Origin: Plasmodiophora brassicae
Taxonomy: Eukaryota
DNA: 64,000 nucleotides
NCBI GenBank assembly: GCA_036867785.1
Contig: CP145419.1
Location: forward strand, 124,001-188,000
Reading direction: 5' to 3'
Part shown: in pieces, positions 1 to 55,001 of the stretch
Numbering within the stretch: the stretch's first letter is position 1
Layout of the letters: the number at the start of each line of letters is the position of its first letter
Made by a program: the position numbers and the translations under genes
Notes under the pieces: model-generated
Seen by the model: only the letters and a program-made list of their open reading frames with translations
What the model was told of the DNA's origin: nothing
The model's database searches: none

Positions 1-626
1 CGACAACCCAGAACTGAAGCCGGGCGTCCGACGTGCTGATCCAGAATCCGTCCGACGAGGCCGCCACCGACGTCACCGTTGGCGGGCCGCCGGATGCCGA
101 CAGGAGATTGCCGCCCAGACCGACGGCGTCGTCAATGTCGGTCACCAGCGACGATGGATGCTCGTTGACGTTCCACTCGTGGGACTCGGCGATTGCCACT
201 GCATGGCGCTCAGGGGAGTCGACGGCGGTGCCCCGCCCCCCGACCTACCTAGATCCGATGGAGGCAACGCGTCCGCGCGGGCGCATCGCTGCCTGGTTCG
301 CGGGTCGAAGACCTGGATCTGGCCGGTCGCAGTGACGGCCACGACGTGCTGTTGTGCACCGCATCGGAACACGCACATGGGCACATGCTGGGCGTCGGCG
401 CCGTCCACGTCCAACCGTTCGCCAATGGGATCCATTCGTTCGGCAGGGTCGGTCGATGACGATCCCGGTCTCTCTCTGTCTCGTTGATCGATCCCGGGTA
501 CGCCTGGTAATGGCGTTCGCCTGCCGGGACGTGCGCGCCACGGTTCCTGCGTCTGGCATGTCGAGCGGCACGCGTGGTCGAGCTCTCAGGGGAGCGACAG
601 AGGACCGGTGATTCGACGGGCGTCAT
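1..626 (-). CDS. Partial gene running off the left edge; possible beta-propeller/WD40-like protein
   Basis: Exon '...HVVAVTATGQIQVFDPRT...' joins in phase through a GTAGGT...ATGCAG intron (~199-248) to an open exon 'VAIAESHEW...VTSVAASSDGFWISTSDARLQFWVV' that reaches base 1. The 5' end is uncertain. Confidence 0.4.
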
Positions 627-1140
627 TCCAAGACGACGACCTTGACGTGTGGGTTCCTAATCCGGCGCCACCATCGGCGGACGATGCGCGATGGCGGGCG
701 GCGACCGTTGCACTAGGACGATGACGATGATGATGATGACGGTGGTCCCATTGGTGGTCCATGCAGCGATGGCAATGGCGACGGCACCGAATCGTGCATC
801 CGTCCATGGGCAGGCACTATCGTTCCCGTATGGCTCTGTGGGGCCCTATGTTCTTCCTGTGTCGGTGCCCGCCGCCTTCCGCACGGCCTCGGTGCGCGTG
901 TCGGCCGGCAACGAGTTCCACGTCGCCATCTACCCGTACCGATCCGCTCAACCGATTCTGGCCCAGTGCTGCGACCACGGCGCGTACGTGTCGCCAGGCG
1001 ATCGTCTACCGGGCGCGTGCCTGGCTCTGCTCAACGGCATCACTCCATGGACATCGACCGCGTTTCCAGACAGGGTATTCGAGCTGAAACGGTTCTCCCT
1101 GCTGCTCAGCAACAGCCTGAACGACTACGAAGCGCATTCG

Positions 1141-1309
1141 AATCGGGACACTGGTGCGACCTCGAGTCCGCAGAGTGCCTTAGATCAGCAATCATAGGGC
1201 GCCTCCCACATATACCGCGCAACACTGCCGTACGGCGTCCGTGGCGCACCAATCATACATTTCTGCTATCTGGCCTTGTCTGGTCTTGTCCGTGTCCTGC
1301 GTGCTAATT
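1141..1309 (+). repeat. 5' LTR (AATCGG...GCTAATT)
   Basis: Direct repeat of 6007-6175, preceded by TSD ATTCG and followed immediately by the PBS. Confidence 0.95.
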
Positions 1310-1322
1310 GGTTATGGGCCCA
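1310..1322 (+). promoter_or_regulatory. Primer-binding site GGTTATGGGCCCA
   Basis: Abuts the 5' LTR. Matches the copia/hemivirus-type PBS complementary to an internal part of initiator tRNA-Met (half-tRNA priming). Confidence 0.85.
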
Positions 1323-1335
1323 TCCCAAGCCTTAC

Positions 1336-1430
1336 CCCTGTCCCTGTTCCTGTCCCCGTCCCTGTCCCCGTCCCTGTCCCTGTTCCTGCCCCAGCCCCAG
1401 TTCCCGTACTGTCCCGTGTCCCAGCCCGTG
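1336..1430 (+). repeat. Hexamer microsatellite (CCTGTC/CCCGTC variants) in the element's 5' leader
   Basis: Visible tandem CCTGTC/CCTGTT/CCCGTC units, which give spurious PVPVPV/CPCP ORFs. Confidence 0.8.
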
Positions 1431-1513
1431 TCGTGATCCAGTTCGCGTTGTGACCGCCCGCGCCCCACGCTCGGTTTGTACCCGTCCCTGTCCCCCTGCT
1501 CCCGCCGCCCGCA

Positions 1514-2461
1514 ATGGCGGAGGACTGGAACCAGATCGTCACAAACCTGAACTCTCAGATCCAGCACCTGCAACAGCAACAACAACAACAGCAGCAGCTT
1601 CTACAACAACAGCACGATCAACTGCTACAACAGCAACAACTACTGCAGCAGCAACCGTCCCCACAACAGCGAACGGTCTCACAGCATCATGTTTCCGAGC
1701 CCAAGGTCAAGCTTCCCCCCATCTACAACGGCGGCCGTGGAGAACTTCGCGGCTTCCTGAACCAAGTCAAGCTGGTTATCACCCAGCGGCCTGCCACCTA
1801 TGCGACCGACGCTCAGAAGGTCGCGCTGGTGGGACAGCTGCTGGGTGGTGATGCTCTTCGGTGGTTTAATCCGTTGTTCGAAAAGGACGACGCGGTGCTG
1901 ACGGAGTTCGTCGCCTTTATCAAGGCCTTCAAGACAAGGTTCGGTGACCCTCATCTAGCCGAGACTGCGGCACGGAAGCTACAGCATCTTCGTCAGGGCC
2001 GAGGCACCGTCGCCCGCTTCGCGACAGAGTTCCAAAACCTGGTGGCGGACGCCGGGTTCAACGACTCAGCCTGCCGACACATGTTCCGCGCCGGCCTGTC
2101 CAGGGACGTGCAGTTCCTGCTGCTGTCCCTGCCCGTCGCCGAGACGCTTGACGAGCTTGTCATACAGGCAATCCGGTGTGACAACCGCCTGGCCGAGCAC
2201 CGATCGACCACCGCCCTCGTTCCTGTCCCTGCTGCCTCCGCCGCCGCAGTGCCGTCCGCTCCTCCCCCAGCCCCGGCCGCCGCGGTTGGGGATCCCATGG
2301 TTATCGACGCCGCGATCGGCGGTGGGCCCCGCGCGCCCTTAACCCAAGACGAGAAAGATCGCCGTCGTCGCGAAGGCCTATGCCTTTACTGCGGGGTGGC
2401 TGGCCATGTCGCAGTGTCCTGTCCCGTGCGTCCGCAGGGAAACGCCTCCCGGCGTGGCTGA
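1514..2461 (+). CDS. gag: Gag, Ty3/gypsy (Sushi/PEG10-like) type, with N-terminal polyQ and a CCHC knuckle
   Basis: Motifs 'EPKVKLPPIYNG...RGFLNQV', 'LLGGDALRWF', 'LRQGRGTVARFATEF', 'DPMVID' and 'EKDRRRREGLCLYCGVAGHVAVSC'. Confidence 0.92.
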   Translation: MAEDWNQIVTNLNSQIQHLQQQQQQQQQLLQQQHDQLLQQQQLLQQQPSPQQRTVSQHHVSEPKVKLPPIYNGGRGELRGFLNQVKLVITQRPATYATDAQKVALVGQLLGGDALRWFNPLFEKDDAVLTEFVAFIKAFKTRFGDPHLAETAARKLQHLRQGRGTVARFATEFQNLVADAGFNDSACRHMFRAGLSRDVQFLLLSLPVAETLDELVIQAIRCDNRLAEHRSTTALVPVPAASAAAVPSAPPPAPAAAVGDPMVIDAAIGGGPRAPLTQDEKDRRRREGLCLYCGVAGHVAVSCPVRPQGNASRRG

Positions 2462-2483
2462 AATCCCGGTCGGTCGCCACGCC
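2437..2483 (+). promoter_or_regulatory. -1 programmed ribosomal frameshift signal
   Basis: G GGA AAC heptamer (2437-2443) in the gag frame, 7-nt spacer, then an 8-bp stem GGCGTGGC (2451-2458)/GCCACGCC (2476-2483). pol lies in the -1 frame. Confidence 0.85.
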
Positions 2484-5400
2484 TACCAATACACCTGTTC
2501 CATCATGCAACCCCGACCACTTCTTTCCCGAGCCAAGTATGATTTCCGCGTCCACCAACCTCGTCGAGCACTTGGACCGTGTCCTAAGCATAGACGTGTC
2601 CCTTCAACTCGACAATGGCAAGACTGTACAGACGACGGCACTTATCGACTCAGGAGCAACCAACGACTTCATACACTCCGACTTCGCCCGCGCTCACAAC
2701 GTTCCGCTCACCAAGAAACCCGCACCGGTAGATCTGGAGGTAATTGACGGGCGGCGGCTACCGAAGGTGGCGCTGGAAACGGCCCCTGTCCGCCTCAGCA
2801 TCGGCAACCACTCCGAATCGATCGTGCTGAACGTAATCGACTCCCCGCGATTCCCGATTATCCTCGGCATGACCTGGCTCTCAAGGCACAACCCGAGCAT
2901 TAACTGGACACACCGAACGATGGAGATTACTCGTGTCGCTCAGGACGCCGCGCGCGAACAGAGCGAACCCAAGGAAGCCATCACAGCCCTAACCTTGCAC
3001 GACAATGGCGTATTCTCTCAGCAACCAGACCCACCACCTCAAGACCTCTCGCCACCCACACGACACGAACGGCGGTCGAGGGCCCGTGTTGACAGCGGCA
3101 AGGTGCCCTACGCCGTTCCGCTTCCCGGGGATTGGAACCAAGCCCAGAGTCTCAAGCGTTGGCACCACCGCCTCGGCCACCGTAACCTGCGTGACGTCAT
3201 CCTGATGGCAAATCATGACCTTACCGAATCCATGGAGATCCTGGCACAGAAGGTTGACAGGTTCTGCGAAGGGTGCGCTATCGCGAAAGCCAAGGAACGT
3301 CCTTTCCCCTCGGAGTCCAAAGAAAAACAGTGGAACGTGCTCGAGAGAATCGACGTCGACGAATGCGGACCGCTTCCCGTCGCCTCACTCAAAGGGGAGC
3401 GATACTTTATCACGTTCACGGAATTTGCAACCAGGATGAAATTTACCTTCCTGTTGCACCACAAGAACCAGGCGCTGACCAAGTTCAAGGAGCTCAAGAC
3501 TCGAATTGAGAATCGCCTGGAGAAATCCATTAAGATCCTCTTCGGCGACAACGATGGGGTATTCATCAACAACGAGTTCAAGGCGTTCTTGCAGGACAAC
3601 GGGATCGAGTGGAGATCAACGGTGGAGTATTCCTCCAAGCAGAACGGTGTCTCCGAACGGGGACACCTGACGCTCATGGACTCCGGTCGCGCAATGCTCG
3701 TACACGCAAGGCTCCCCAAGCAGTTCTGGGGACCCGCAATTCTGACTGCCAGCCACGTCCATAATCTCTGCCCCCACCCACGCGATCCCTCGACCACGCC
3801 CCATGAAATGCTGTCGCGCTCGAAACCTGATATCCGCTACCTTAGAACGTTCGGGTGCGACGCATATGGCTACGTCCCGTCCAGCCAGAGAACGAAGCTG
3901 GACCCACGCGCCGTGAAAGGCATCTTCATCGGATATGCAGACCACCAGAAAGGGTACGTCCTCTATCACCCTTCGTCCGGCCTGATCAAGGTGTACCGCA
4001 GCGTGACGTTCAGCGAAGACAGCTTCGGCGGCCGCAGTGCGGACGACGCCCTCGCCGATCCCGAGGAACCTGAGTCTGGATACGACAGCGACTACGTTCC
4101 CTCCGGTGACGAACCCGCTGTCGAGGGGGCGCAGTCCGCCGCAGGCCCCAATGAGGATCCGCGACCTCCCACCGAACGAGCCCGGCGTCTCTCCCGCAAG
4201 CCAGACCGTTTAGGAGATCCCGTCCACCACGCCTGGATCGCGTCCCTGCAACCTACCAACGACGATCCTATTCACCACATGTGGATAGGTTCCACACATC
4301 AATGCGACGACGACGATGACGCCGCGCTCATTGCAGATGACCCCGACACTCCAAACACATATGAAGACGCCATGGCAAGTCCCGAGGCAGAGTTCTGGAC
4401 TAAGGCGATGGCCGATGAATTGAAGAGCCTGAAACAGCACAAGACATGGGAAGCTGTGGAGCGACTACCCGTCGGGGCACGCCCCATCGGATGCCGCTGG
4501 GTCTACAAGCGCAAGATCACCAAGTCAAGTCAGATCCCGCCGGACACCACCTGGGTTCTCCGCCATGACCCCGACGGTGTCACCTCCTACCGGTACAAGG
4601 CTCGACTATGCATACTCGGCTACAGACAGCGCCAGGGGATCGACTACACGAACACCTATGCGCCAGTCGTCCGGAGCGACATCCTCCGTCTAGTACTAGC
4701 CCTGTCCGTCCAAGACAAGGAGATCATCGCCGAGCAGATGGATGTGATGACCGCATTCCTCAACGCCCACCTCACCGAAGAGATCTACATGGACTCCCCG
4801 AAAGGGATGAAGGCCAGAACCCGTTTCGTCAAGCTCCTACGATCGATCTATGGCCTGAAACAGGCCCCAAGAGAATGGTTCAAGGTCATCGACGCCTTCC
4901 TCGTTAACGAATGCGGGTTCCAACGAGCCAAGTCCGCATCGTGCTTGTACTTCAAACGTGGTCCAACTGGACGGCTCGTCATTGTTGGGGTCTACGTCGA
5001 TGATATTCCCATCGTCGGACATCCCGAACTCGTACAGGAAACCAAGTCAGCCCTCTCGAAGAGATTCAAGATGTCGGACATGGGAGAGCTTCAATCAGTC
5101 ATTGGCTTCGACGTCGATAGACAAGGTGGATCGGTGTTCCTGTCGCAAGAACGCTACACGAAAACTATCCTCGACACCTACGGCATGGCCGAATCGCGCC
5201 CCGTCTCGACACCGGCAGATGCGAACTTGAAGTTATCCACATCACTGTGCCCGCAGAACCAGGCCGATCGCGAACTTGCCGCCTTAGAAGGCCAGCGCAT
5301 CAACTATCGAGCAGCGGTAGGTCACCTAATGTGGCTGCTGCACACCCGGCCAGACATCGCCTATGCGGTGAACGAGGTCTCCCGATACGTGCAAGACCCA

Positions 5401-6063
5401 GGGCCAGCGCACTTCGTCGCGCTGAAGCGAGTCTTCAGGTACCTCAACGGCACTCGCAACTACGGCCTCCTGTTCGAAGGAGGTGGGGAAACGGCCACAC
5501 CGCTCCTGGTCGGCTACTCCGATTCTGATTGGGGTGGAGACCTCGACACACGACGATCGACTTCGGGGTGCGTGTTCCTTCTGAATGGCTGCCCGGTTTC
5601 ATTTCGCTCTAAGAAGCAGACCACGGTCGCGTTATCGTCGTGCGAGGCGGAGACGGTGGCGTCAACACTCGCGGCAACAGAAGGCGTCTGGTTGCGCAAT
5701 GTGCTGGACGAACTAGGTTTTCCACAAGCTCAGCCTACACCTCTACACGTAGACAATCAGGGGGCGATCGCGTTCGCCAACAGCGAAATCAACCACAGCA
5801 AGATGAAACATCTCGCGCTCAAGGACCACTTCGTCAGAGAACTGGTGGCATCCAACCAGATCAAGGTGCACTACGTCCGCTCGTGCGAGAACCTCGCCGA
5901 CATCTTCACGAAACCGCTCGGAAAGCACAAGTTCGTAGAATTCCGTGCGGCCCTCAAGTGCGTACCGCATCCCCACATGAACTTGGACTCTCAGGTCGAG
6001 GGGGGGAATCGGGACACTGGTGCGACCTCGAGTCCGCAGAGTGCCTTAGATCAGCAATCATAG
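2437..6063 (+). CDS. pol: Pol: aspartic protease, HHCC/DDE integrase, copia RT and copia RNase H
   Basis: PR 'LIDSGAT...IILGMTWLSRHNPSINW'. IN 'WHHRLGH..CEGC', 'DECGP', 'DNDG', 'QNGVSER', 'KLDPRA...FIGY'. RT 'YKARL', 'QMDVMTAFLN', 'IYGLKQAPREW', 'YVDD'. RH 'YSDSDWGG..RRSTSG', 'ADIFTKPL'. The stop lies inside the 3' LTR. Confidence 0.96.
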   Translation, partial: GKRLPAWLKSRSVATPTNTPVPSCNPDHFFPEPSMISASTNLVEHLDRVLSIDVSLQLDNGKTVQTTALIDSGATNDFIHSDFARAHNVPLTKKPAPVDLEVIDGRRLPKVALETAPVRLSIGNHSESIVLNVIDSPRFPIILGMTWLSRHNPSINWTHRTMEITRVAQDAAREQSEPKEAITALTLHDNGVFSQQPDPPPQDLSPPTRHERRSRARVDSGKVPYAVPLPGDWNQAQSLKRWHHRLGHRNLRDVILMANHDLTESMEILAQKVDRFCEGCAIAKAKERPFPSESKEKQWNVLERIDVDECGPLPVASLKGERYFITFTEFATRMKFTFLLHHKNQALTKFKELKTRIENRLEKSIKILFGDNDGVFINNEFKAFLQDNGIEWRSTVEYSSKQNGVSERGHLTLMDSGRAMLVHARLPKQFWGPAILTASHVHNLCPHPRDPSTTPHEMLSRSKPDIRYLRTFGCDAYGYVPSSQRTKLDPRAVKGIFIGYADHQKGYVLYHPSSGLIKVYRSVTFSEDSFGGRSADDALADPEEPESGYDSDYVPSGDEPAVEGAQSAAGPNEDPRPPTERARRLSRKPDRLGDPVHHAWIASLQPTNDDPIHHMWIGSTHQCDDDDDAALIADDPDTPNTYEDAMASPEAEFWTKAMADELKSLKQHKTWEAVERLPVGARPIGCRWVYKRKITKSSQIPPDTTWVLRHDPDGVTSYRYKARLCILGYRQRQGIDYTNTYAPVVRSDILRLVLALSVQDKEIIAEQMDVMTAFLNAHLTEEIYMDSPKGMKARTRFVKLLRSIYGLKQAPREWFKVIDAFLVNECGFQRAKSASCLYFKRGPTGRLVIVGVYVDDIPIVGHPELVQETKSALSKRFKMSDMGELQSVIGFDVDRQGGSVFLSQERYTKTILDTYGMAESRPVSTPADANLKLSTSLCPQNQADRELAALEGQRINYRAAVGHLMWLLHTRPDIAYAVNEVSRYVQDPGPAHFVALKRVFRYLNGTRNYGLLFEGGGETATPLLVGYSDSDWGGDLDTRRSTSGCVFLLNGCPVSFRSKKQTTVALSSCEAETVASTLAATEGVWLRNVLDELGFPQAQPTPLHVDNQGAIAFANSEINHSKMKHLALKDHFVRELVASNQIKVHYVRSCENLADIFTKPLGKHKFVEFRAALKCVPHPHMNLDSQVEGGNRDTGATSSPQSALDQQS
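5998..6006 (+). promoter_or_regulatory. Polypurine tract GAGGGGGGG
   Basis: Directly abuts the 3' LTR. Confidence 0.85.
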
Positions 6064-6175
6064 GGCGCCTCCCACATATACCGCGCAACACTGCCGTACG
6101 GCGTCCGTGGCGCACCAATCATACATTTCTGCTATCTGGCCTTGTCTGGTCTTGTCCGTGTCCTGCGTGCTAATT
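6007..6175 (+). repeat. 3' LTR
   Basis: Matches 1141-1309 and is followed by TSD ATTCG. Confidence 0.95.
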
Positions 6176-6702
6176 ATTCGGGCGGCTTGCTGGTTCTCAT
6201 CCGGTTCCGCCGGACGGCGAGGCCCGTCAACGCGGTCATGCGCCACTCGCCGGGCCTGGGGATCTGTAAGTTCCGCTTCAACGCGAGCAGCGGTTATCAT
6301 CTACCGGATCGGCTCGACTAGCGGGCATTACAGTGCCGTACAATGAAACCGGGAGGCCCTTTGCAGGGACCGCTCGTTGTCGTCTTGCGATACACGAAAC
6401 GCATGAGCGTTGCTGGTCAACCACGCCATTCACCTATTCGGACCTTTCCCTGCTGATATACCCGAGAACGAGAGCGAACGTAGTCATGCGGCCCAGGAAC
6501 CGTTCGACTCGGACCATGGACTGTCAAACGGCGTACTGCCGCTAAACAGGTGCCAGGTGGTCAGCGCTTGCAGGACTTGGACGTGCGCGTTGGCAAGCGG
6601 GGCCAAATCGGGCGCCAAGACGCGCACCACGACGCTGGTGCGGCAGGCCGCCCGTCGGGACCTCCGACTGGTGCGCCCCAATCCCATATCGCAACTGGGC
6701 GG

Positions 6703-7263
6703 ATGACGACACTGACGGCGATATTCGTACTATTGGGGCAACTCTTGATTGCCGCGGGGGCAGAATCGGATGGTCAGGCGCCGCCCCGTCTGGTTGGGCA
6801 ATCAGCATCGTTCCCATACGTTTCCGCCGGGCCGTACATTGTCCCGTTGCCAGCAGCCGCCGATCTCCGCACAGCATCGTTCTCCGTCGCGGCCGCCAAT
6901 GCGTTCCATGTCGACATTTACGCGTACAACTCGGTGCACCCGATCCTGCTTCAGTGCTTCGGCGATGGCACGCAGATCTGGCAAGGCGATCGCCTTCCGA
7001 GCAGGTGCTTGGCGTCGCTCAAACGCATTCGCCCATGGGTATCCAGTCCGTCCCTGAGCAAGACGTTCGCTGTGAGGCCGATATCCCTGCTGCAGATGGG
7101 CCCCTATATGCATTCCGGTGGTTTGCTGGCAGTCGTCCGTTTCCCCCTCGCGGTCAGACTCGTCAATGCTCTGCGCAGGACGTCGTCGGCTATGGGTTCC
7201 AGGGACTGCGAGTTCAAGTTCGGTGCGACCACCGACGACCATCTCCCGGATTGGTTCGCCTGA
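6703..7263 (+). CDS. Small secreted protein of unknown function; intact tandem paralog of the disrupted gene
   Basis: Signal-peptide-like 'MTTLTAIFVLLGQLLIAAGA'. Shares 'GQ..SFPY..GPY..P', 'FHV.IY.Y', 'GDRLP..CLA' and 'HSGGLL' with the 721-6321 gene. Confidence 0.8.
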   Translation: MTTLTAIFVLLGQLLIAAGAESDGQAPPRLVGQSASFPYVSAGPYIVPLPAAADLRTASFSVAAANAFHVDIYAYNSVHPILLQCFGDGTQIWQGDRLPSRCLASLKRIRPWVSSPSLSKTFAVRPISLLQMGPYMHSGGLLAVVRFPLAVRLVNALRRTSSAMGSRDCEFKFGATTDDHLPDWFA

Positions 7264-25792: not shown

Positions 25793-26211
25793 GGTCGCGC
25801 AGCAGCAGTTCAGACTCTCACACCCGCGTCTGACTCGCGTGTGACGCAAACGGACGGAACTGCGCGCGGGATTCTGCGCTTGCGGGACCACGTGGACAAT
25901 GCGGGCGGCGGAGTTACAGTATGTCCGCGGTGCGGCGCTCGGCACCACCTGGCCAATGGCAGACCTGGAGCCACCAGCACGCGCCTGGCCCGAGAGACGC
26001 TTCTCCCGCCCGCCTGCCGCGGTCGACAAACTAAACTCAACATAGCAATATCGGTGCTGGCAGTCTTGTGTGTTAAACATATCACCCTGGCAACCATAGG
26101 GCGCCCACTCATATATCACCCCCGGACCCCGCCCACGGTGTCCGTGGCGCACCAACCTCAATACATTACATTGCTTTACTTTAGGCATCACAGCGAACAC
26201 GCGCTAGCAGT

Positions 26212-29200
26212 TTAGGCAACCTGGTTTCGCGGATTCGAACGTCCAGATTCATGTGAAGACTGCCCGTTACTGGACGTGCGCTCAATTCGGCAAGCCGATT
26301 CGAAGATATCCTCCGATGCCAGGTCGACGTCTAGGTCGGATGAGGGTGCCTCGTGCAGTGGTCCAGCGCGGACCGTTGCAGGTTCAGTCGACATCGCGGT
26401 GCCTGAAGGTGCAGATCTAGACGCCAAACGCACTGACCTGTGTGAGACGGACGACACCAAGTGCTCTGCTGGCAACGCCTCGGCAACGAACAGTTCGACC
26501 CGTTGCCCTGCCGAGTGAGGTTCGTTCCAGATTACAGCTAACCCATTACTGGACGTGCAGATTTGCCACGCCATCTCGAGGATTTCCTCTGTGGCAAGGT
26601 CTACTTCTGCCCAGGAAGATGCAACCTTCGCCTCCTGGATTGGCCCGGCCGGAATCGACGCAGGTTCAACCAATATCGTATTGGCGGATGGTACAGGGCC
26701 CGAGTACAGGTAACCAGGGGCACTGGCTTCTCTCCGTCCGTCGTCATTCTGCCACTGGGCAGACGCTGTGATCCCAAACATAGCAAGCTTGTCCAATGAC
26801 GACGAGTGTTTCGCACTCACACTTAACCTCTCGGAAACGATGTTGTTCCCGACAGTGCGAACGCAGAACACAAGAACAAGGATGATGGAGAGAACTTCGC
26901 ACGCCAAGAACAGGGTGTAATACATTGTATACCCAGCGAGATAAGCATCTGGATCCACAATGGAAAACACCCACAGAGCGCTCTGGCATGATAGCGCCAG
27001 ACAGAACATGGTGCATACCGAGCATATGAACCGGCCGATGCTCGTGTACGTCCTGACCTGGGTGCTGCCCGCCTTGCGCAGGATGTTGAACAAGGCGCGT
27101 CCGCAGTACAGGAAGTACAGACTGCATGCCAGGCAGACCATTCCGACCAGCAACGACGCAGCATCAATGAGGGCAACAGCGAGCGGCACGGATCCGAACA
27201 CGGTTACGCTCGTCTGGAAGAAAACACCACCGATAACCAGGCCGGGTACGCCAACCGCGACGGCGAGGTTGCCAAACAGATACGGGCGGACGAAACCTTC
27301 CAGAGGGGAGCGATGATGACTCGTCGACAGCTTCTGGATGCGGTCGCCGGTGGACCAAATCATTACGATGAAGAACGTCAGCAGGAGGGACATAACGCAG
27401 GCGGGGAGGACTGACAGGGCCGCCACCGCCACCAGTGCGGAACCCGCGTACTGAATGTTCACTGCGCAGATCGCCGTCCGAACGCCGCATACCACAAGGG
27501 ACAGCACCAGAAGCGTGCACAGGGAGCGCCGCGCCTGCACTTTATCGACATGTCGATAGGTGCTGGCGAGCAGTACCAACGTGGCGCACATTGCCGCCAC
27601 ATACATCCAGAGGAACGTTCGATGGACGTGGGAAGCATCGTCGATCATGACGGCGACGCCGGGCCCTTGATCCGATGGGGAATTCCCGCTACCGACAACG
27701 GTCGCGATGATAGCGAAGTCGGTTAAATGTGTACAGGAGCAGGTCACCGAACCGTTTCCGTTGGCAGTGGTTGTGCATCCGGCATCGTTCCACACGCCAC
27801 GAGTCTCGTTGAACGTAACGCATAGCGGGCGCATCGAACCGTTGACAGGCACGAGCGGCGTCATGGTGACGTTAATCGGTGACGATAAATTACGTATCGA
27901 CAGTGGGATCCGGGCGCTGCCAGGGTCACTCATTCCGACATGGTAGGCGCGAAGAGTTAGGACGTTGGAGATGGCGTCGCTCGGTAGCGGGACGTTCTGC
28001 GGCAGATGGGACCAGGTCGTGGCCTGAATGCCAACGTAGCCGGAGGCATTGGCAACGCTCCAGAACGCGTCCGGGATGCTGATTCGGTTGATAGGGCCGG
28101 CACAGTGGTTGCTGGTTGCATGCCGCATCTCGTCAACCATCCAGACGTCGGTCGCGAAGCTGGACGTTGCCAGTGGCAATGCCGGCTGGCAAGGCACAAC
28201 GAGCGCCAGCTGCGCCGATGCAATCATGTCAACGGCCGAATGCTCAGCGAGCGTCGCACCGGTGACATTCGCCAGGCGGTTCGCCGTTATCACCGCCGAC
28301 ACTGAGTTCGCCAGCGCGTCAAGGCCCCGCAAGGACAGGGCTTGCTGCCGCTCCATCGACTGCTGCATGAGATCCATGACGAACGACAGGATCGGCTGCG
28401 TGGCGTTCGCCATGAGCTGCTCGGGGCGTGCCGTCAACGTGCTCAGCAGACGGGCGCAATCGTCGGCGTTCACCGGCACAGGTTGGGCACACGTCGACAT
28501 CAGAGCCGATAGATACGCCGACCGGGCCGCCCTCACATCGGACGTAGCTGTCGCGTCCGACATTGCGTTCAGCACGAGCGATGCCATCTGCAGGCTGCTG
28601 ATGGCGGCACGCGTCGACGCGGTTACCTTCGTGACCATGACGTTCCGCGGAAGCGTGCCAGGCGGCCCGGGATGGACCTGCACGATTGCCCAGGCCGGAG
28701 CGGACGGCACCGATTCCATATCAGGGATCGCTCTGACAATGACCTTCAGGGCGTCGTTACGATCGCGGTCGCCTCGTGGCAACGTTGTACGAACCGTCGA
28801 CGAATTTGCATTCGCGATCGGGTATTCGGTTCCGGATGGGTCGTCCAGGAAACTGTACGTGAACATGTAGGTGAATGGCGTTCGGGTACCATGCCAGCCC
28901 GAGGTCGTGATGTCAAAGAGAGTGGACAACTCCACCTGTGCGGCATCGGACCAGGTGACGTTGACGAAGCCTCCAGTCGGAACGGAGGGGATGGCGAGCG
29001 CGATGGAGCCATTAGCGGATGCGGTGCCGCCATACTGTGCCCATAGAGCGAACTGATACGAGCGCCCGTAGGCAAGCGCGTTCGGGGCCAGAGTCAGGGC
29101 GAGAGTGTTGGTCGAGGGTGTGAGGATGTATGGCGATGTCACCGAAACGTCCAGCGCGTCGCAGCTCCATTGTGTTGTTAGCTGGCGCAAGTCGACGCCG

Positions 29201-30508
29201 TTGGGGACGGATCCATACAGCGTCAACGGGGTGGTTGGATCTCGGACGGCAGGGCCTCGAATCGACACCCGAAACGATGCCTGGCATGGTGCCGTTGAAC
29301 GTCTCTGCGTTGTCAGTCGACGTCGTCGCGTGGTGGCGGTCGGTGAGTAGCTCGTCAGGTTCTGGAGGACGTACAGGTTGAGCGTCGTGATCCTCAGATT
29401 CCCGTACAAGCTCCTGGTTGGACGGTCGGGTTTGCATCCTGATATCAATGGGCAAATATGCAATCGTACAGGGACTGGAGGCGCGTCAATGTAGATCTTG
29501 CGTTCAGGGCGGTCAACCGATTCCCCGCTATCGTCCTGACAAGCGACCGGTACATCACTATGAGCGGCGCCAAAGAGCACCCACGACGAGGGATAAGTAC
29601 AGCGTTCGTAGTTGGGTAAGAGTCGCGAACGTGCCCTCAGGAAAGCTGGTGACCGAATCGTAGCCAAGACCCAGTGTCTGCAGGTTCGTCAAATGCCTGA
29701 ACGCGCCCACTGGAATGGCAGAGAGCCGGTTATTGCCGCCGATTTGCCTACGCCCGAGCAGCAGTGACCATCTGAAGACCTGGACGGAATCACCGGGGCC
29801 CTTACAATGTAACCAGTTCCGTCATGGTGTCGAAACTTCCAGCGATCAGGTACGGAATATCGTTGTTCGACAGCATCCTGGCAGCACTGTGTGAGTCCCA
29901 GCGGGCGTAGTTTGATTGCCCACTCCCGGCAAACAGTTGCTGAAGATGGGTACTGAAGGTGCCAGGCGGAATCATCGCCTGGGAGACCTTGTTGTTGTTC
30001 AGGTTCCTGTCACGTAACTTAGCTTGCTAGTTTTAGCACTGGCAGCAGGCCATCGACGGAGATACAGTTGCAGTAACTGGGCCATGTTCGTGAAGGCCCC
30101 TGTGGGAATCATTGTGATCCCGTTACCCTGTAGGTTTCTGGACCCGTACAAGTCAGTTCAAGGGACGTCGTGCGAATGGCCGCCCATGGTCCGACATGTC
30201 GGTACACGATGTCAGCAAGTCGAACGCGCCGGGTGCCAGGCCGACAACGCCCGGGCTGCCGCTGATACGGACGCTCTGAATCTGGCCGACATTGGACAGC
30301 GTCGAGAACCAGGTCGAGTTGATGGTCCCCGCAACTGTCGATACGGACGACGTGTCACTGAACCGACAACGTCAGCATTGCAATATGGTCTGCCTGACTG
30401 CCACCCGCCCTACATGGTAGTCGCAGTGCATGTTATCGCATACCAGCAGCATATGTTCGCGTCCGCGACGCCGACGATCGCTAGCGCGGTCGCCACGACG
30501 GGCCACAT
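26212..30508 (-). CDS. LRR + REJ-like + GAIN/GPS + 7TM receptor (adhesion-GPCR/polycystin-1-like)
   Basis: Signal peptide 'MWPVVATALAIVGVADA' and short LRR exons at ~29400-30370. Large last exon with REJ-like 'P.GG...LSTLFDITTSGW...PFTYMF.Y', GPS 'CVTFNETRGVWNDAGC...TCSCTHLTDFAI' and about seven hydrophobic helices. Confidence 0.88.
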
Positions 30509-45040: not shown

Positions 45041-47467
45041 TCATGAGCACTGGCCCTCGCGGAAACAGTGTTGACGATGCGGGTCGCGAACGTAGACATC
45101 GCGCCTGTACACGACGGCTGCGCGTTTGACGGCATCGTGGACGCCAGGGGGCATGACCGCGGATGTTACCAACCGTATAGCGTCGTATGGAGCCAGAACG
45201 TTCACAGCATAGGCGAATGCGATCAGTTCGCTGCGAAGCCAGTTCGGGTCCCCCGGGTCATGGTCAAGGTCCTGCACAAGACGCCGATGCTGATTTCGTA
45301 GGTTACAGTCCGTCCGATACCTGTCATCGTCAGACTGAAACTCCAGCGTTTCGCTCGGCGCCAACAGCAGGGTTCGACTAGTCCGGTCTGGTATGCCCCT
45401 GGCCGCCATCTCGTCGCGAACTCGAACGCAGTCTGACATCCGACCAGCGTGCTCGTACACGCTGGACATCAAATGGCACGCAGCAGATTGAAGACGACGA
45501 CTGGACGCTGACGACAGATCGCCACTGAGGATGAGGTCGAAGATACGCTCTGCTCTGCTCACATCGTCATGCTTGCGACATGCGCTGAGGATGGTGAGCA
45601 AGGAGTCATTGCCCACGTTCGTGGACGATAACGCAAGCTGTTCCGCGTCATCTAACATGCCAAGTCGCCCGTAAAGAACGATCAGGCAATTGACAATGAC
45701 ACGGGAATCACGCCCCAGGCGGATGCCCCACCGGTGCTCGAACTCGCTGGACAACGCGTTGAAGCGGTCCAAATCCCCAGCAAGACTGCTGGCAGTCAGC
45801 AGTGCCACAAGCATGCCCTGGTCAGGACGCACCACCATCCCCGTCGCCTTGAACTGTTCGTACATCGCAAGAGCGTTCGACAACATGCCATGCGACCCGT
45901 AAGCCGATATGATCGCGGCGAATGCCTCGACGCTGGGAGCCGGGTCCTCGAAGAACAATTGCTCAGCGGCGCCAATCACACCACATCGAGCGTACGCTTC
46001 GATGAGGGACACGCGCACGTCCTCATTGGTCAACCGCCGCTCCCCAGTATATCGGTGCAATGCCTGGACGGCCGCCAGTTGGTATCGGCTGCCAAGGGCG
46101 GTAACCAGGACAGCAACCACGCCGGCGTCAGGAGCGTCATCAATCCGCTCGAGCATGGTCTGGAACAGAGAGTACGCCCGGGCGTCCTGGCCAGCCTTGG
46201 CAAGCGCTGCAATGGTGCTGTTGTAGATCGCAGCATCGACCCGCGTTCCGGGAGGCGACCGTGCACGTTCGAACAACTCCAACGCCTTGTCAAGCTGGCC
46301 GTGCCGCCCATACGCCCGGATCATTGCAGAGGCGGCCTGTGGGTCGAGAAACAGGACAGCATCGTAGCGGCCGCGGAAAACCTCTTCGGCAGCGTCGATG
46401 TCGTTCACCTGATCGTAGGCAGTAACGAACGCGCATACAACGCTGTCGTTGTCCAGCATGCCGCTGCCAATGGCGTACTCGTGCAGCGTCTTGACGGCCA
46501 GCGCATTGGAGCGGCGACCGCATGCCGCGATCAGATCAATGAGAACGTGATAGCTGACGCTCAAGTCTCGTCGGACCATATTCTGAAACACAGACATCGC
46601 CTGATCAATGCGATCGGCAATGGCCAGAGCAGAGACGACGCTCGAGAAGATTTGCTCGCTCGGCGGCAGGCCAACGTCGTCCATTAGCGACAGAGCGCTG
46701 ACTGCCGACTGGAACCGCCCCTGGCCTAGAAGCGCCTCGATGAGGTTGCCGAAGATCAGACGGTTCCGTGGGGGCGTAACGCGCTTCAAACGAATACGGT
46801 GGAGGATTCGTTCGGCGATGTCAGCTCCAGACGGCGATTCCGCGTCCGCACAGCAACCAGCAAACAGGAACAAGGCGTCCTCACTGGCATCCGCTTTCCG
46901 TCGAAGTGCATCCGATATGATATGCAGAGCGGCGATGCGGTCTTCGGCCGCTATGCAGACCTGGGCGACGTGACAGATCGTGCCATAGTCGTGCGGGCCG
47001 TACTTCTTGTAGCGGTCCAGAAGCTGGACCAGAAGAGGCGGGTACGTCTTCGAGCAAGCACTGACGAACGTTCTGAACAATACTTTGCTGGGGATGCCAC
47101 GGGCCATGGCAATGTCCAGGACTTTGGGCGCCCAGTACGGCAACAGCTCCTGGCAGAACTTCATCATCGCCTTGAAGAACGTGTCATCGGGCTGCAGACG
47201 ATTCGATTTGACGACGTGCTCAAACACGATCCAGACGGCGTCCGCATCGCCCTCGTGCTTCATCACGCGGCACGCGTTCTCGATCGACGGCGCCCGCATG
47301 AACTCGTCGAAGTAGTGCGTTGCCGACGGCCTACTGCCCGGTCGCGTCTTCCCGTCAACCACGTCCACCTTCGGCCTCGTCGCCAGCGCCATCCCATACT
47401 GTCCACGCCTGGGCAGGAGTACCCGCCTGGTAGTCAGCAAGGCGGCACATCGCGCACGCGGCAGCAT
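45041..47467 (-). CDS. Pentatricopeptide-repeat protein with E and degenerate DYW domains, intronless, probable mitochondrial presequence
   Basis: PPR motifs such as 'AMIRAYGRHGQLDKALELFE'. E domain 'ILSACRKHDDVSRAE..LMSSVYEHAGRMSDCVRVRDEM'. DYW-like 'RSELIAFAY...RDVYVRDPHRQHCFREGQCS'. Arg-rich N-terminus. Confidence 0.9.
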   Translation of the reverse strand: MLPRARCAALLTTRRVLLPRRGQYGMALATRPKVDVVDGKTRPGSRPSATHYFDEFMRAPSIENACRVMKHEGDADAVWIVFEHVVKSNRLQPDDTFFKAMMKFCQELLPYWAPKVLDIAMARGIPSKVLFRTFVSACSKTYPPLLVQLLDRYKKYGPHDYGTICHVAQVCIAAEDRIAALHIISDALRRKADASEDALFLFAGCCADAESPSGADIAERILHRIRLKRVTPPRNRLIFGNLIEALLGQGRFQSAVSALSLMDDVGLPPSEQIFSSVVSALAIADRIDQAMSVFQNMVRRDLSVSYHVLIDLIAACGRRSNALAVKTLHEYAIGSGMLDNDSVVCAFVTAYDQVNDIDAAEEVFRGRYDAVLFLDPQAASAMIRAYGRHGQLDKALELFERARSPPGTRVDAAIYNSTIAALAKAGQDARAYSLFQTMLERIDDAPDAGVVAVLVTALGSRYQLAAVQALHRYTGERRLTNEDVRVSLIEAYARCGVIGAAEQLFFEDPAPSVEAFAAIISAYGSHGMLSNALAMYEQFKATGMVVRPDQGMLVALLTASSLAGDLDRFNALSSEFEHRWGIRLGRDSRVIVNCLIVLYGRLGMLDDAEQLALSSTNVGNDSLLTILSACRKHDDVSRAERIFDLILSGDLSSASSRRLQSAACHLMSSVYEHAGRMSDCVRVRDEMAARGIPDRTSRTLLLAPSETLEFQSDDDRYRTDCNLRNQHRRLVQDLDHDPGDPNWLRSELIAFAYAVNVLAPYDAIRLVTSAVMPPGVHDAVKRAAVVYRRDVYVRDPHRQHCFREGQCS

Positions 47468-47723
47468 CTGCGCGCGCGCGCGCTTATTACGTTACCCCTG
47501 CGTTACGCAGACCGCAGTGCCCCGTCGGGACGCGGGTCACGCCGTGGAAGACAGGCCAGGCCCGCATGAGCCTGGAAGAGGTACCTAAGGGGGTCTGATT
47601 GGTCCTCCCGGTTGAGTCAACGCTAGTTGGCCTCCGAGAGCAGTGACGCAACACGAGCAGGGCAGACACACGAGTCGACGAACGGTCACCACTATCCTAT
47701 TCAGTTAGCGTATCGCAAACGCA

Positions 47724-50158: not shown

Positions 50159-51361
50159 TTATGGAGGCGGGCGGTTGGCAGGTGGCGGTGGGGCAGCATG
50201 GCGCCTGGGCGGGCCGGAGCGCGGTGCATGTGGTCCTTGGCGGTACGGCGGTGGGTACGGATATCCAGCGCCGCGGCCGAAGTCGGGCACCGGGTAGAAC
50301 ACGGGCGGCGGCTGCCCGTACGGGACGGGCATCGGGCCGTAGAACGCGGGCATCGGGTACGGGGGCACCATCGGGGCGTATGCCATTTGCGGCGGGCCAT
50401 ATGGCGCGCCGGACATGTTGACCGGCATCGGCGGCATACCAGCACCGCTCGGGACAAACTCCTTCGCCGCAGCACTCATCGTGAACGTCTTCGCGTTCGC
50501 GTTCAACTTCGGCTTGGCCGTCGAGGCGGTGTCATCCGTCGCCGGCGTTGTCGCTTCATTCGCCGGCGGTGACTTCGAACGCGCAGGCGACTTTGAACGT
50601 GGCGGCGACTTCGACAGGGCCGGCGGCTTCGAACGGGCCGCAGGCGGCCGATACACGTTCGGGCGATCATCGCCACCGAGAACCGTGCTGAACCGTGCTT
50701 CCTCGTCCGCGTCGCCGCCGACGGTATGGCCACGTTCCTCGGCCACGTGCGCGTTGTTGCCGGCCGACTGCGACATGATCTCCTTAGCGACGCGTTGAGC
50801 ACGCTCTTCGTGACGCTTGTAGAACTGTGAGTTCCGGTCGACCTTTGTCGTGTAATGCTCTTCGACGTACGAGCTCTCGTACCCGAAGAGCTGCCTGTTG
50901 ACCTCGAACTGGTTCCACCCCCGGCTATCAGGACGCTGCTTCGCCTCGGCGTCGAGGCAAACGTCGGTGCCTTCGTGCGCGTCGCCGTCCGTCCACTTCT
51001 GCAACTGCCTGGCACCTGATCCAGCCGTGCTCGCGCTGATCTCCGTGTCCGTCCTGAACGTCGTCGTCTCCTCGCGCTCTCGCAGGTCACGCTGAACAAT
51101 CACGCAGGCGACATGCGCGGCATCGAATGAACGTTCCTTCTCGAACGGGTTCGTGTTGCGCGCGCCGCCGTTGGACGCCGACACGAGCTGGACCTGGCCG
51201 AGGACGTACGTCGCCGGCGTCGACTTGTCGAGCAGGACGCCCTGGTACTGGCGCCCATTGTCCAACTCGACCGTGGCGACCTGCCCCGCCAGGCCGCCCA
51301 GCACCCGGGACGCCGACGACGGCGCCGAGTCGGCGCCGCGGACGCGCGACGCGTAGCTCAT
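50159..51361 (-). CDS. ATXN2: Ataxin-2/Pbp1 homolog (LSm, LsmAD, PAM2 motifs, Pro-rich tail)
   Basis: 'FRTDTEIS', 'RQLQKW', 'WNQFEVNRQLFG..S.Y.E..YTT', 'HVAEERG..DEEARFS', PAM2 'KLNANAKTF' and 'SAAAKEFVP'. Confidence 0.92.
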   Translation of the reverse strand: MSYASRVRGADSAPSSASRVLGGLAGQVATVELDNGRQYQGVLLDKSTPATYVLGQVQLVSASNGGARNTNPFEKERSFDAAHVACVIVQRDLREREETTTFRTDTEISASTAGSGARQLQKWTDGDAHEGTDVCLDAEAKQRPDSRGWNQFEVNRQLFGYESSYVEEHYTTKVDRNSQFYKRHEERAQRVAKEIMSQSAGNNAHVAEERGHTVGGDADEEARFSTVLGGDDRPNVYRPPAARSKPPALSKSPPRSKSPARSKSPPANEATTPATDDTASTAKPKLNANAKTFTMSAAAKEFVPSGAGMPPMPVNMSGAPYGPPQMAYAPMVPPYPMPAFYGPMPVPYGQPPPVFYPVPDFGRGAGYPYPPPYRQGPHAPRSGPPRRHAAPPPPANRPPP

Positions 51362-51939
51362 TGCGTCCGGCGGCCACCAACCAGACTGAGACTCGGCCGA
51401 ACAAACAAACCCGGACCCCGCCGGCGCACTGCGCGCGTGCGCGCGTCTCCGTGGGCCACAACCTGGCGGGGACGTTCCACTGCCCGGCGGTACCTGACCG
51501 TGCCACCTACAGCAAAGGCGCCGACGATACACAGTAGGGAACTACTGCATCGTGCGCAATGGGGGACGGCCGGCCCCAGAGCGGCTATGTTCTGAAATCT
51601 GTGTTGGGCGGACCAGTCCAGAACACGGGCACACCGGCAACCTGCGTGATTGAGCCGACATAGGTACGCCATACTCGCTGCACCGTGGAGATGCAAGCCC
51701 AGACCTGCACTGTGGACAGCAGTTTTGCGGGGCGCTCCCCGGAGCGATGGTGTGACACCTCGTCGGCTGTCCCGCGTTGGCCGGTGACGCCAGTGGTGCA
51801 CGTGTTTTTTTTTGCACCGAAATGGGAGGTGCGCCGGACGTGACAACTGACAAGTGCCGTACGGTCAAGTGCCGGTTCGCCCTTTCGGCTGCCCTCGTCA
51901 CTTGCTGATTTTGTCGTGCCGGTTTCGGGGAGGAGTTCG

Positions 51940-53097: not shown

Positions 53098-54097
53098 TCA
53101 CCATTCGACCTTGTGGAAGTCGAAGTTCCTCAGGATGACGTCGATGCTGACCGTGATGACGCCGACCGACATGGTCGTGATCTTGCACCGTTCGTCCTGC
53201 GCCGTGTCGAACAGGATCTCGGTCGTTCGCAATTGCGGGTTCAGGCCCAGGAAGAATGCTACACGGGCCTGATCGTCAGCCAACGCCACCAACGGGGCGG
53301 CCATCGCTCCCACGAACAGGCGACTTCCTCGGATACGGTCCCCAAGGGCCTCCATACGCTGCATTCCATCACATGGTGCCCTGGCGTCGTTGGCACGTTG
53401 CACACCGAGTACCCATCTGGACGGGCGGCGCGTCGACCCCGTTAGCCACAGGAGTGGACACGGGCCGCTCGACCTTACGGTGGTGGCGCCCGCCGATGTC
53501 GTCGAGCGAGAACAGCTGGAAGTGGATGCGCGGCCAGCCCTGCAACGTGGTCGTGAAGAAATGCGCCTCGATCGGATGGTTCCAGACGAGCGGGTCGTCG
53601 TCGCCGTCGCCGCTGCCGTAGTCGACCTGCGTCTGCGACTCGGCGTAGCTCGGTTCGGCGACGTTGTCCCATGTGGGCCCGGCCACGACCTTGAACGCGC
53701 AGAACGCGTTGCCCAGCGTGCCCCGGAACCCGGCGATCTGCCCGATGACGTGCAACTCGGGCTCGAGACGATCCAGGTTCGCCGGGGGCATCGCCGATTT
53801 CACTAGCGACGCCGGCGGGCGTGCCGTTAGGCTTCGTCCCGGCTGAGACGACGCCGACGCGTCCGACGATCGGCGACGCGAGCTGACCTGCATGGCGTCG
53901 CCGGGCGCGTTCGCCTGCGCGCGTGGCGCCGACGGGGCATCCTGTGGTGGAGGAGCGGGCGCAGGCGGCACCGAACCGGCCCTAACCGCGAATACGCTCC
54001 CGACGCTGGCGCGCAGGCGGTCGCCCAGCGATGGGCGATGACGACGTGGGCCCAGAAGCTCTTCCTTGGCGGTCGCGTTCTCGGCCGCTGACGTCAT
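53098..54097 (-). CDS. B9D2: B9-C2 domain ciliary transition-zone protein (B9D2-like) with an N-terminal extension
   Basis: 'ELHVIGQIAG', 'QTQVD', 'VWNHPIEAHF...LQGWPR', 'PTTPGHH...WRP', 'VILRNF'. The start is uncertain. Confidence 0.82.
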
Positions 54098-54269
54098 CGT
54101 GGTCGCGCCCCGTGCACACAGCACTGGAGCGCAGCCTGTAGAGCACAGAGACACGTTCTCCTGAGCCCTATCACCAGCCCTGATCGTAGGTTTATTCATC
54201 GCGTCGTGGCTGGTGCTGAGGTTGCCGAGGCAGGGACCTGTGCCCCCGATGGGTGCGCAACGAGTACGG

Positions 54270-55001
54270 TCAACGCTTCCGAATCGGTGTCGGGGCGGGC
54301 GCGCGTCGCGATCGACTTCGCAGGCGCTTTGCGATCGGAGGCGGGCTCGGATCAGCGATTGCGATTGCCCGACGTTTGGCGGTGGGCTTCCTGGGCGGCG
54401 CCGGAACCGCCTCGGGTTCACTGTCGAAAGGCGTTGGGTTCGCGGGCAGTAGAAGAGCACCGACACGGTCGGACGTATCCAGGTTCGTGGATAACGACGA
54501 CATTTCGTCGAATACCGACGACGGTTCGTCGACAATGGCCTTCGGTTGCCTGGGAATGTGCCGCCCCTCGACGTGCCGAGCGTCGTCGGCGTCGGGAACA
54601 TTTTGGATCCACGACGTGGTCGTCGTCCAGTGGCGCGTCTCTTGACGCACGGTCACACGTCGGGAACCCTCCGAACTGGCGTTGGGCAGCCAGGGCTTAG
54701 GTGCCCCGCTTCGAAGAGCGATCGCGACAGGCCGGGCAGGCGGAGGAGGCTGTGAGGTCCGACAATGGCGAACCTGTGCCAGTGCGCGTTTCGTCAGTGC
54801 TCGCGAAGGTGCCCGCTGCAGAGCTGGGGGCCGGAACGCGACCGGCTGGGGTGGCTGGTGGCGTACAGGCCGTCGCGAACGACAGCAGCAGAAGAATAAG
54901 GAGCTGAAGACGCCCTGCAGAATGCGGGCAATGCGGCCATGAATGACATCGATAACAAGATGCAGGGCGACGGCGACCGCTACCCAGATGAACCAGAGCA
55001 T
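54270..55001 (-). CDS. Hypothetical protein with a hydrophobic N-terminus and basic disordered tail
   Basis: ORF 'MLWFIWVAVAVALHLVI...FFCCC...'. No domain recognised. Confidence 0.35.
   Translation of the reverse strand: MLWFIWVAVAVALHLVIDVIHGRIARILQGVFSSLFFCCCRSRRPVRHQPPQPVAFRPPALQRAPSRALTKRALAQVRHCRTSQPPPPARPVAIALRSGAPKPWLPNASSEGSRRVTVRQETRHWTTTTSWIQNVPDADDARHVEGRHIPRQPKAIVDEPSSVFDEMSSLSTNLDTSDRVGALLLPANPTPFDSEPEAVPAPPRKPTAKRRAIAIADPSPPPIAKRLRSRSRRAPAPTPIRKR

Follow-up and report, generated by a model that had tools for sequence, protein, structure and literature searches.

A Ty1/copia-type retrotransposon with a Ty3/gypsy-type gag-protease module in Plasmodiophora brassicae

The 64,000 nucleotides (nt) of Plasmodiophora brassicae DNA analysed here (assembly GCA_036867785.1, contig CP145419.1, positions 124,001 to 188,000 of the forward strand; below "the window", in which all coordinates are counted from its first letter) contain an intact long terminal repeat (LTR) retrotransposon of 5,035 bp at positions 1141-6175 of the + strand. 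Its Gag and protease (PR) are of the Ty3/gypsy type, and its integrase (IN), reverse transcriptase (RT) and RNase H (RH) are of the Ty1/copia type. With a probability of about 80%, we regard it as an autonomous, recently active element of an old and unnamed Ty1/copia (Pseudoviridae) lineage, in which the gag-PR module was replaced from a Ty3/gypsy chromovirus-like element. The replaced module would comprise the capsid, the nucleocapsid and the protease, and the copia-type primer site, integrase, RT and RNase H would have been kept.

The gag frame extends from 1454 to 2461 with its first ATG at 1514, and the resulting gag gene (1514-2461, +, 315 codons) encodes a glutamine-rich N-terminal stretch, a Ty3/gypsy-type capsid and a CCHC zinc knuckle. 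Pfam assigns Retrotrans_gag (5e-15), DUF4939 and Ty3_capsid to this protein, and none of the copia-type Gag models PF14223, PF14244 and UBN2 matches the element at E<=0.1. The Gag of the chromovirus P0003 is 38% identical to that of the element over 306 amino acids (aa; E 1e-59). In profile comparisons using hhalign, Gag aligns to a gypsy-Gag profile of 11 sequences with a probability of 100% (E 1e-50, 239 columns), whereas a copia-Gag profile of 25 sequences reaches a probability of 54% over 31 columns, which cover the zinc knuckle only. The look-alike clusters that are nearest to Gag in a feature-based comparison are all Retrotrans_gag/Ty3_capsid or unnamed, and a Gag search among longer proteins returned as sole match the fish chromovirus P0138, which is weak evidence, as other candidates were crowded out. 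The glutamine-rich stretch is encoded by imperfect CAG/CAA repeats at 1547-1670, a place at which P0003 is non-repetitive.

Pol is encoded by an open reading frame (ORF) of 1,293 codons (2182-6063, +), read in frame -1 with respect to gag, which enters the 3' LTR and is free of stop codons throughout, including the protease-integrase junction. The protease at 2614-2937 (+), a retropepsin of the RVP_2 type with the motifs DSGA and IILGMTWL, corresponds to Pol aa 145-252 and is matched by the Pfam models RVP_2 (aa 150-252, 1.6e-7), Asp_protease_2 and gag-asp_proteas, and the copia-type protease model Pol_BBD (PF22936) has no match in Pol at E<=0.1. A search with the protease region among 467 candidates gave 15 matches, all of them gypsy polyproteins in which RVT_1 is accompanied by gypsy RNase H or integrase domains; 11 also have a chromodomain, none has RVT_2, and the closest of the 15 is again P0003 with 50% identity. 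Since this search missed members of the family described below, its 15 matches do not gauge the size of that family. In a protease tree of 39 rows (careful search), 15 copia proteases are set apart by a long branch with a support of 100/100 from 16 gypsy proteases and the eight proteases of the family, with a poorly supported internal order on the gypsy side. The protease is followed by a linker (2938-3144, +), which resembles neither superfamily and is variable in length among the relatives.

Beyond the linker, the integrase (3145-4026, +) consists of a gag_pre-integrs zinc-binding part (Pol aa 322-369), an rve core (aa 392-484) and an SH3_retrovirus domain (aa 547-615). It stands ahead of the RT, which is of the copia type RVT_2 (4543-5217, +; aa 788-1012, 3e-59) and is nested among copia elements in the RT-RH tree. 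The RNase H region (5218-5991, +) is without a Pfam model match and was assigned by aligning Pol with copia polyproteins along the full length. When Pol aa 300-1270 served as the query, there were 2,930 matches among 8,000 scored candidates, and RVT_2 is present in all 120 matches that were listed; the copia relatives span 96-99% of this region, which also holds the motifs YSDSDWGG and ADIFTKPL. In a second search, with Pol aa 110-620 (see below), the copia alignments begin at Pol aa 310-326 or later (query residues 201-217). No RVT_1, gypsy RNase H, gypsy integrase or Chromo domain was found in Pol using Pfam. A preliminary description of this DNA had already proposed separate gag and pol ORFs with pol in the -1 frame, a Gag and a protease of Ty3/gypsy type, Ty1/copia order and motifs downstream of about 3150, and a junction near 2950-3150. 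Each of these proposals agrees with our results, the gypsy-type similarity stopping at approximately nt 2937 and the copia-type similarity beginning at approximately nt 3139-3145, and all motifs quoted there are present in the gag and pol translations. Its central claim, an exchange of a gag-protease module between Metaviridae and Pseudoviridae, is likewise supported by the separate affinities of the modules in Pfam, hhalign and the trees.

The mixed layout is shared by other proteins. Among the 120 listed matches of the Pol search, four (P0018, P0019, P0021 and P0022) have a copia integrase that is immediately preceded by a gypsy-like protease and lack both PF14223 and Pol_BBD. They are the full-length ones among the relatives and also the four best copia matches listed, with identities to the element over IN-RT-RH of 58% for P0018 and P0019 and 51% for P0021 and P0022. 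An exhaustive search with Pol aa 110-620 yielded 61,331 matches at E<=1e-3, and among the best 150 of them, which were looked at, four further protease-integrase fusions (P0141, P0142, P0153 and P0174) were identified using phmmer on 282 proteins, where the only other protease matches were 16 gypsy polyproteins. A retropepsin Pfam domain is present in six of the eight relatives and Pol_BBD in none; P0142 retains only about 40 protease residues, and P0174, which is below Pfam detection, matches the protease of the window at 2e-17. Overall, the relatives are about 40-58% identical to the element. An alignment of five sequences shows a conserved protease end (NPxIDW), a variable linker and a conserved integrase start (HxRLGHRN). 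A metagenome scan with this alignment gave 43 loci, 42 of which are ordinary copia; the remaining one, L001, lies on the contig encoding P0142 and has a gag zinc knuckle, the heptamer GGGAAAT, a protease in the -1 frame and a copia integrase. No relative was found in a scan of viral contigs.

The RT-RH tree comes from a quick search on 38 rows, from which proteins of >2,000 aa holding two elements were excluded. In it, the window element forms a clade with P0018, P0019, P0021 and P0022 as well as with P0029 and P0166, two N-terminally truncated proteins. This clade is placed inside starred groups, at 98 with P0028 and P0098 and then at 99 with P0027 and P0159, and among these copia neighbours P0028 carries Pol_BBD, and P0027 carries PF14223 and PF22936. 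Because the family is one RT-RH clade inside copia, beside lineages with a normal copia protease, the swap is an old event and probably a unique one. The simplest reading would thus be that gag-PR was replaced a single time, long ago, in one copia lineage, with one recombination point in the interval from the primer site to gag and the other at approximately 2938-3144.

The insertion in the window is well delimited. The direct repeats 1140-1309 and 6006-6175, the sole long direct-repeat pair within the window, are 100% identical, and they include a 5' LTR (1141-1309, +) and a 3' LTR (6007-6175, +) of 169 bp each. The element is flanked by the target-site duplication ATTCG on the left (1136-1140, +) and on the right (6176-6180, +), as seen from the flank sequence and from contigs with an empty site. 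The LTR termini are AAT (1141-1143) and ATT (6173-6175) and not the canonical TG...CA; nonetheless the insertion is precise and has a 5-bp duplication. We compared the region 600-6800 with the contigs of four public runs (X2, X3, X4 and X15) from four studies with four organism codes. X3 and X4 contain the exact empty site, with a contig that joins 1135 to 6176, skips 5,040 nt and shares 5 letters, and the contigs of X2 and X15 suggest that the site is occupied there. The linker is crossed by single contigs in X3 (2123-3977) and in X4 (2062-4142). Furthermore, 0.97-0.99 of the sampled words of the junction stretch 2400-3900 are present in 20 runs of 9 studies, comprising five organism codes and "plant metagenome", whereby four of the 20 rows may be the source itself. 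In other contigs at least six different sequences, several of them common to different runs, follow the 3' edge of the LTR, which shows that there are further copies or solo LTRs.

Deleting the element together with one copy of the duplication restores a host ORF of 207 codons, which is 43% identical to a paralog at 6484-7263 across the insertion point. The interrupted gene (661-1140 plus 6181-6321) is small and has no Pfam match, and the intact paralog lies 300 bp downstream. The two genes form a tandem pair; one of them is inactivated in this isolate but intact in X3 and X4. The insertion is recent and segregating, and the architecture is old: relatives with an identity of 51-58% have the same layout, which places the swap far back and leaves only this insertion as recent. 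The preliminary description, which had called 1141-6175 an intact LTR retrotransposon on account of matching LTRs, a clean target-site duplication and open ORFs, and had assumed that the chimera transposed recently as one unit instead of arising by nesting, was right on both points, as the LTRs are identical, the duplication is exact, an empty site exists and the ORF is continuous. A mis-assembly at the PR-IN junction, which it had named as a possible refutation, is contradicted by the contigs of other runs that cover the junction and by the exact empty site. Its chimera account needs one refinement: the layout is not unique to this copy, as it is shared by diverged relatives with 51-58% identity in pol.

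Two peculiarities of the contigs should be recorded here. A contig of X15 joins 2913 to 3099 and thereby omits 185 nt of the PR-IN linker, and in X3, X4 and X15 the depth of contigs from the 5' part is 3-6 times that of contigs from the 3' part, the step being placed differently in each run. Both the 2913-3099 join and the depth steps may reflect deleted or truncated copies. The idea that the depth step points to a shared gag-PR module was dropped, since the step position varies by run and the depths are not rankable.

How pol would be expressed and how the element would be copied can be proposed from several sequence signals. The gag-pol overlap contains a single in-frame heptamer of the type X_XXY_YYZ, the candidate -1 frameshift site G_GGA_AAC (2437-2443, +), which is located in the gag frame 15 nt upstream of the gag stop, and a -1 shift at this site yields ...GKRLPAWLKS..., which is the pol frame. 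A hairpin with an 8-bp lower stem (2451-2483, +), which starts 7 nt after the slippery site, is a possible frameshift stimulator. The relative L001, whose proteins are about 44% identical, has GGGAAAT at the equivalent place, a short distance ahead of its gag stop (...SGNAS... vs. ...QGNAS...), followed by the protease in the -1 frame and an additional frame break within the protease. In P0174, zinc knuckle, protease and integrase are all in one ORF. Expression of pol by -1 frameshifting is supported because the slippery site GGGAAAY is conserved, and it is well motivated but unproven.

A candidate primer-binding site, GGTTATGGGCCCA (1310-1322, +), is located directly 3' of the 5' LTR, and a polypurine tract, GAGGGGGGG (5998-6006, +), whose role is deduced from its sequence, adjoins the 3' LTR. 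Internal priming by initiator tRNA-Met is a habit of copia elements and of Ty5 (genus Hemivirus). The 13 nt of the candidate site are antisense to the anticodon stem-loop of the human initiator tRNA-Met, and the match is thus internal to this tRNA and not at its 3' end. The 12-mer at 1310-1321 is printed in six open-access articles, and in two of them (PMC5648532, PMC1797187) it belongs to oligonucleotides antisense to human initiator tRNA-Met, in which the match continues to 13 nt. A scan for tRNA genes in the window and 27 loci was negative, and Rfam gave no match in the window. Taken together, an RNA extending from LTR to LTR would be translated into Gag, and a -1 ribosomal frameshift at G_GGA_AAC just ahead of the gag stop would give Gag-Pol, which the gypsy-type retropepsin would then cut. 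Synthesis of cDNA would be primed at 1310-1322 by the internal part of initiator tRNA-Met and also by the G-rich tract that adjoins the 3' LTR, and the copia-type integrase would finally insert the copy and make the 5-bp duplication. As a further trace of LTR sequence, 79 nt at 26090-26167 are 76% identical to LTR positions 48-121 (E 4e-7), which may be the remnant of a related LTR.

Four other explanations of the mixed element have to be weighed against a replaced module in an old copia lineage. That it is an artefact, i.e. a mis-assembly or a copia/gypsy nesting bounded by two LTRs by chance, gains some plausibility from fungal genomes, for which complex nested LTR elements have been described (Muszewska, 2011, PMC3248453). 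However, the uninterrupted ORF of 1,293 codons runs over the junction, there is one LTR pair only, the duplication and the empty site are exact, the junction occurs in 20 runs of 9 studies and the layout is kept in diverged relatives, which leaves this possibility next to no room. A recent one-off chimera in this genome without a wider family, which could have arisen e.g. when a template switch joined a chromovirus and a copia element that both reside there, would fit the identical LTRs, the polymorphic insertion and the one copy in the window. The higher depth of gag-PR compared to RT-RH contigs in three of the four runs might even point to a shared module, although the depths are not rankable and the depth step sits elsewhere in each run. 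Against such an event stand the eight proteins with about 40-58% identity that share the protease-integrase fusion, one of them encoded by a metagenome locus, and the low identity to gypsy proteins, which in the nearest cases is 38% for Gag and 50% for the protease. We consider it very unlikely.

It could also be argued that no exchange has taken place and that a deep copia lineage has retained an ancestral gypsy-like Gag and protease, because all LTR elements have Gag proteins and retropepsins with a distant homology and the gypsy-Gag and copia-Gag profiles match each other with a probability of 94.5% over 149 columns. But the clade is nested within copia, where its neighbours have Pol_BBD and PF14223, identities of 38-50% link its Gag and protease to chromovirus proteins with a similarity to copia Gag that is limited to the zinc knuckle, and the copia proteases are set apart by the long branch with 100/100; we therefore judge a retention to be unlikely, if somewhat less so than the one-off event. 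The same chimera would result if a gypsy backbone had captured a copia IN-RT-RH block, and a 5-bp duplication is compatible with both superfamilies. The non-canonical LTR ends are uninformative on the direction of transfer. On the other hand, the candidate primer site is of the internal initiator tRNA-Met type known from copia and Ty5, the copia part makes up about two thirds of the coding sequence, and no chromodomain or gypsy integrase remnant is left. Such a reverse direction is the least improbable of the four alternatives and still an improbable one.

Several observations weigh against the replacement of gag-PR in an old copia lineage or weaken parts of it. None of the contigs listed for X2 and X15 leads by itself from the protease to the integrase core; the contigs 2062-3138 and 3109-5841 in X2 and 2062-3131 and 3099-5914 in X15 overlap by about 30 nt in the linker, and the flank contigs of both runs reach 29 letters into the LTR, which is under the 31-letter threshold. 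The support of 90 SH-aLRT (approximate likelihood ratio test of the Shimodaira-Hasegawa type) for the family clade derives from the quick search and is not starred, and the comparison sets for gypsy and copia were gathered by similarity and show the superfamily, not the exact donor clade. A full Gag is seen in the window copy only, P0174 and L001 showing just the C-terminal zinc-knuckle part. The hairpin downstream of the slippery site has a minimum free energy of -23.9 kcal/mol with a z-score of -1.1, which is not significant alone, and the fold at the corresponding place of L001 (z +0.2) is no better than shuffles. Finally, the active-site motifs of P0021, P0022 and P0141 are atypical (DGA or DNG), and therefore the family members are not all necessarily active.

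Compared to known systems, the element is like Ty1/copia in the order PR-IN-RT-RH, the RVT_2 domain, the integrase with gag_pre-integrs and SH3_retrovirus, and the 5-bp duplication, and its candidate primer site would fit the anticodon stem-loop of initiator tRNA-Met in the manner of copia and Ty5. It is unlike Ty1/copia in having a Retrotrans_gag/Ty3_capsid Gag instead of PF14223/UBN2, an RVP_2 protease instead of Pol_BBD, separate gag and pol ORFs with a candidate -1 frameshift site, and LTR ends AAT...ATT. With the chromoviruses of Ty3/gypsy (Metaviridae; Tf1/sushi-like branch) it shares the combination of a Retrotrans_gag/Ty3_capsid Gag and an RVP_2-type retropepsin, whereas RVT_1 in the order PR-RT-RH-IN, the gypsy RNase H and integrase and the C-terminal chromodomain of the latter are all absent, and the integrase is ahead of the RT. 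A similarly mixed look, with an integrase ahead of the RT and gypsy features, is found in the Gmr1-like elements, which Goodwin and Poulter in 2002 are said to have described as gypsy throughout with a rearranged domain order; since RT and IN of the present element are copia-type (RVT_2), it is not Gmr1-like. The nearest reported analogue is PyRE1G1 of Porphyra yezoensis, reportedly a copia-like retrotransposon encoding a gypsy-like integrase (Peddigari, in 2008). Judged by its title, that report also concerns a mosaic between superfamilies, in which the foreign module is the integrase and not, as here, Gag and protease.

A further comparison is offered by P0072 (JGI source), a copia polyprotein (RVT_2) that likewise has a Retrotrans_gag/Ty3_capsid Gag, but has a Pol_BBD protease, a single ORF and another place in the RT-RH tree. 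A chromodomain (aa 712-758) is present as well and separates the SH3 domain of its integrase from RVT_2. P0072 probably represents a second, independent transfer of a gypsy module to copia. A copia element with both a gypsy Gag and a gypsy protease was not found in the open-access literature, as covered by main texts, the collections of Repbase, Dfam and GyDB being outside this scope, and no such mosaic is mentioned in the consulted sections of PMC5445492, PMC2774666, PMC3248453, PMC8321522, PMC6875170 and PMC12440569. Among these, PMC5445492 is a survey of 27 fungal copia clades that rests on RT sequences, and PMC12440569 reviews module acquisitions. The small family with the mixed layout is thus, provisionally, apparently undescribed.

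The host DNA surrounding the element has about 60% GC and contains several long uninterrupted ORFs. These include, all on the - strand, a REJ+GPS (polycystin-like) protein (26212-29688), a pentatricopeptide repeat (PPR) protein with a C-terminal DYW deaminase domain (45041-47491), an LsmAD/ataxin-2-like protein (50159-51541) and a B9-C2 ciliary basal-body protein (53369-54652). Going by these ORFs, the host is a eukaryote with flagella and not a dikaryan fungus. PPR proteins of the DYW type are uncommon outside land plants.

It is customary to regard each superfamily of LTR elements, and likewise the virus families Pseudoviridae and Metaviridae, as a unit in which gag and pol co-evolve. The acquisitions that are widely known add something to an element, for example env, a chromodomain or a second RNase H (Kojima, 2025, PMC12440569). 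Here a core structural and maturation module would have been exchanged between superfamilies with a viable product, as indicated by the intact ORFs, the identical LTRs, the insertion that is polymorphic among sequenced isolates and the diverged relatives. Judging from its domains, the element would be copia-like for integration and reverse transcription and chromovirus-like for particle formation and maturation. It may therefore serve as a test case for which interactions between Gag and RNA, between Gag and RT or IN, and between protease and substrate are generic across Ortervirales, for how a frameshift-controlled Gag:Pol stoichiometry moves with a module, and for how such mosaics are to be labelled by classifiers relying on just one of Gag, protease and RT. 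The farther-reaching claim, that this is an unrecognised, old and still active Pseudoviridae-like lineage which took over the whole particle-forming and maturation module from Metaviridae, we put at even odds. If it is true, a copia replication machinery that is primed by internal initiator tRNA-Met can be packaged by a capsid and processed by a protease of the gypsy type, and, together with P0072, a flow of modules from gypsy to copia would be suggested more than once. An assignment of superfamilies by RT alone would then hide such mosaics.

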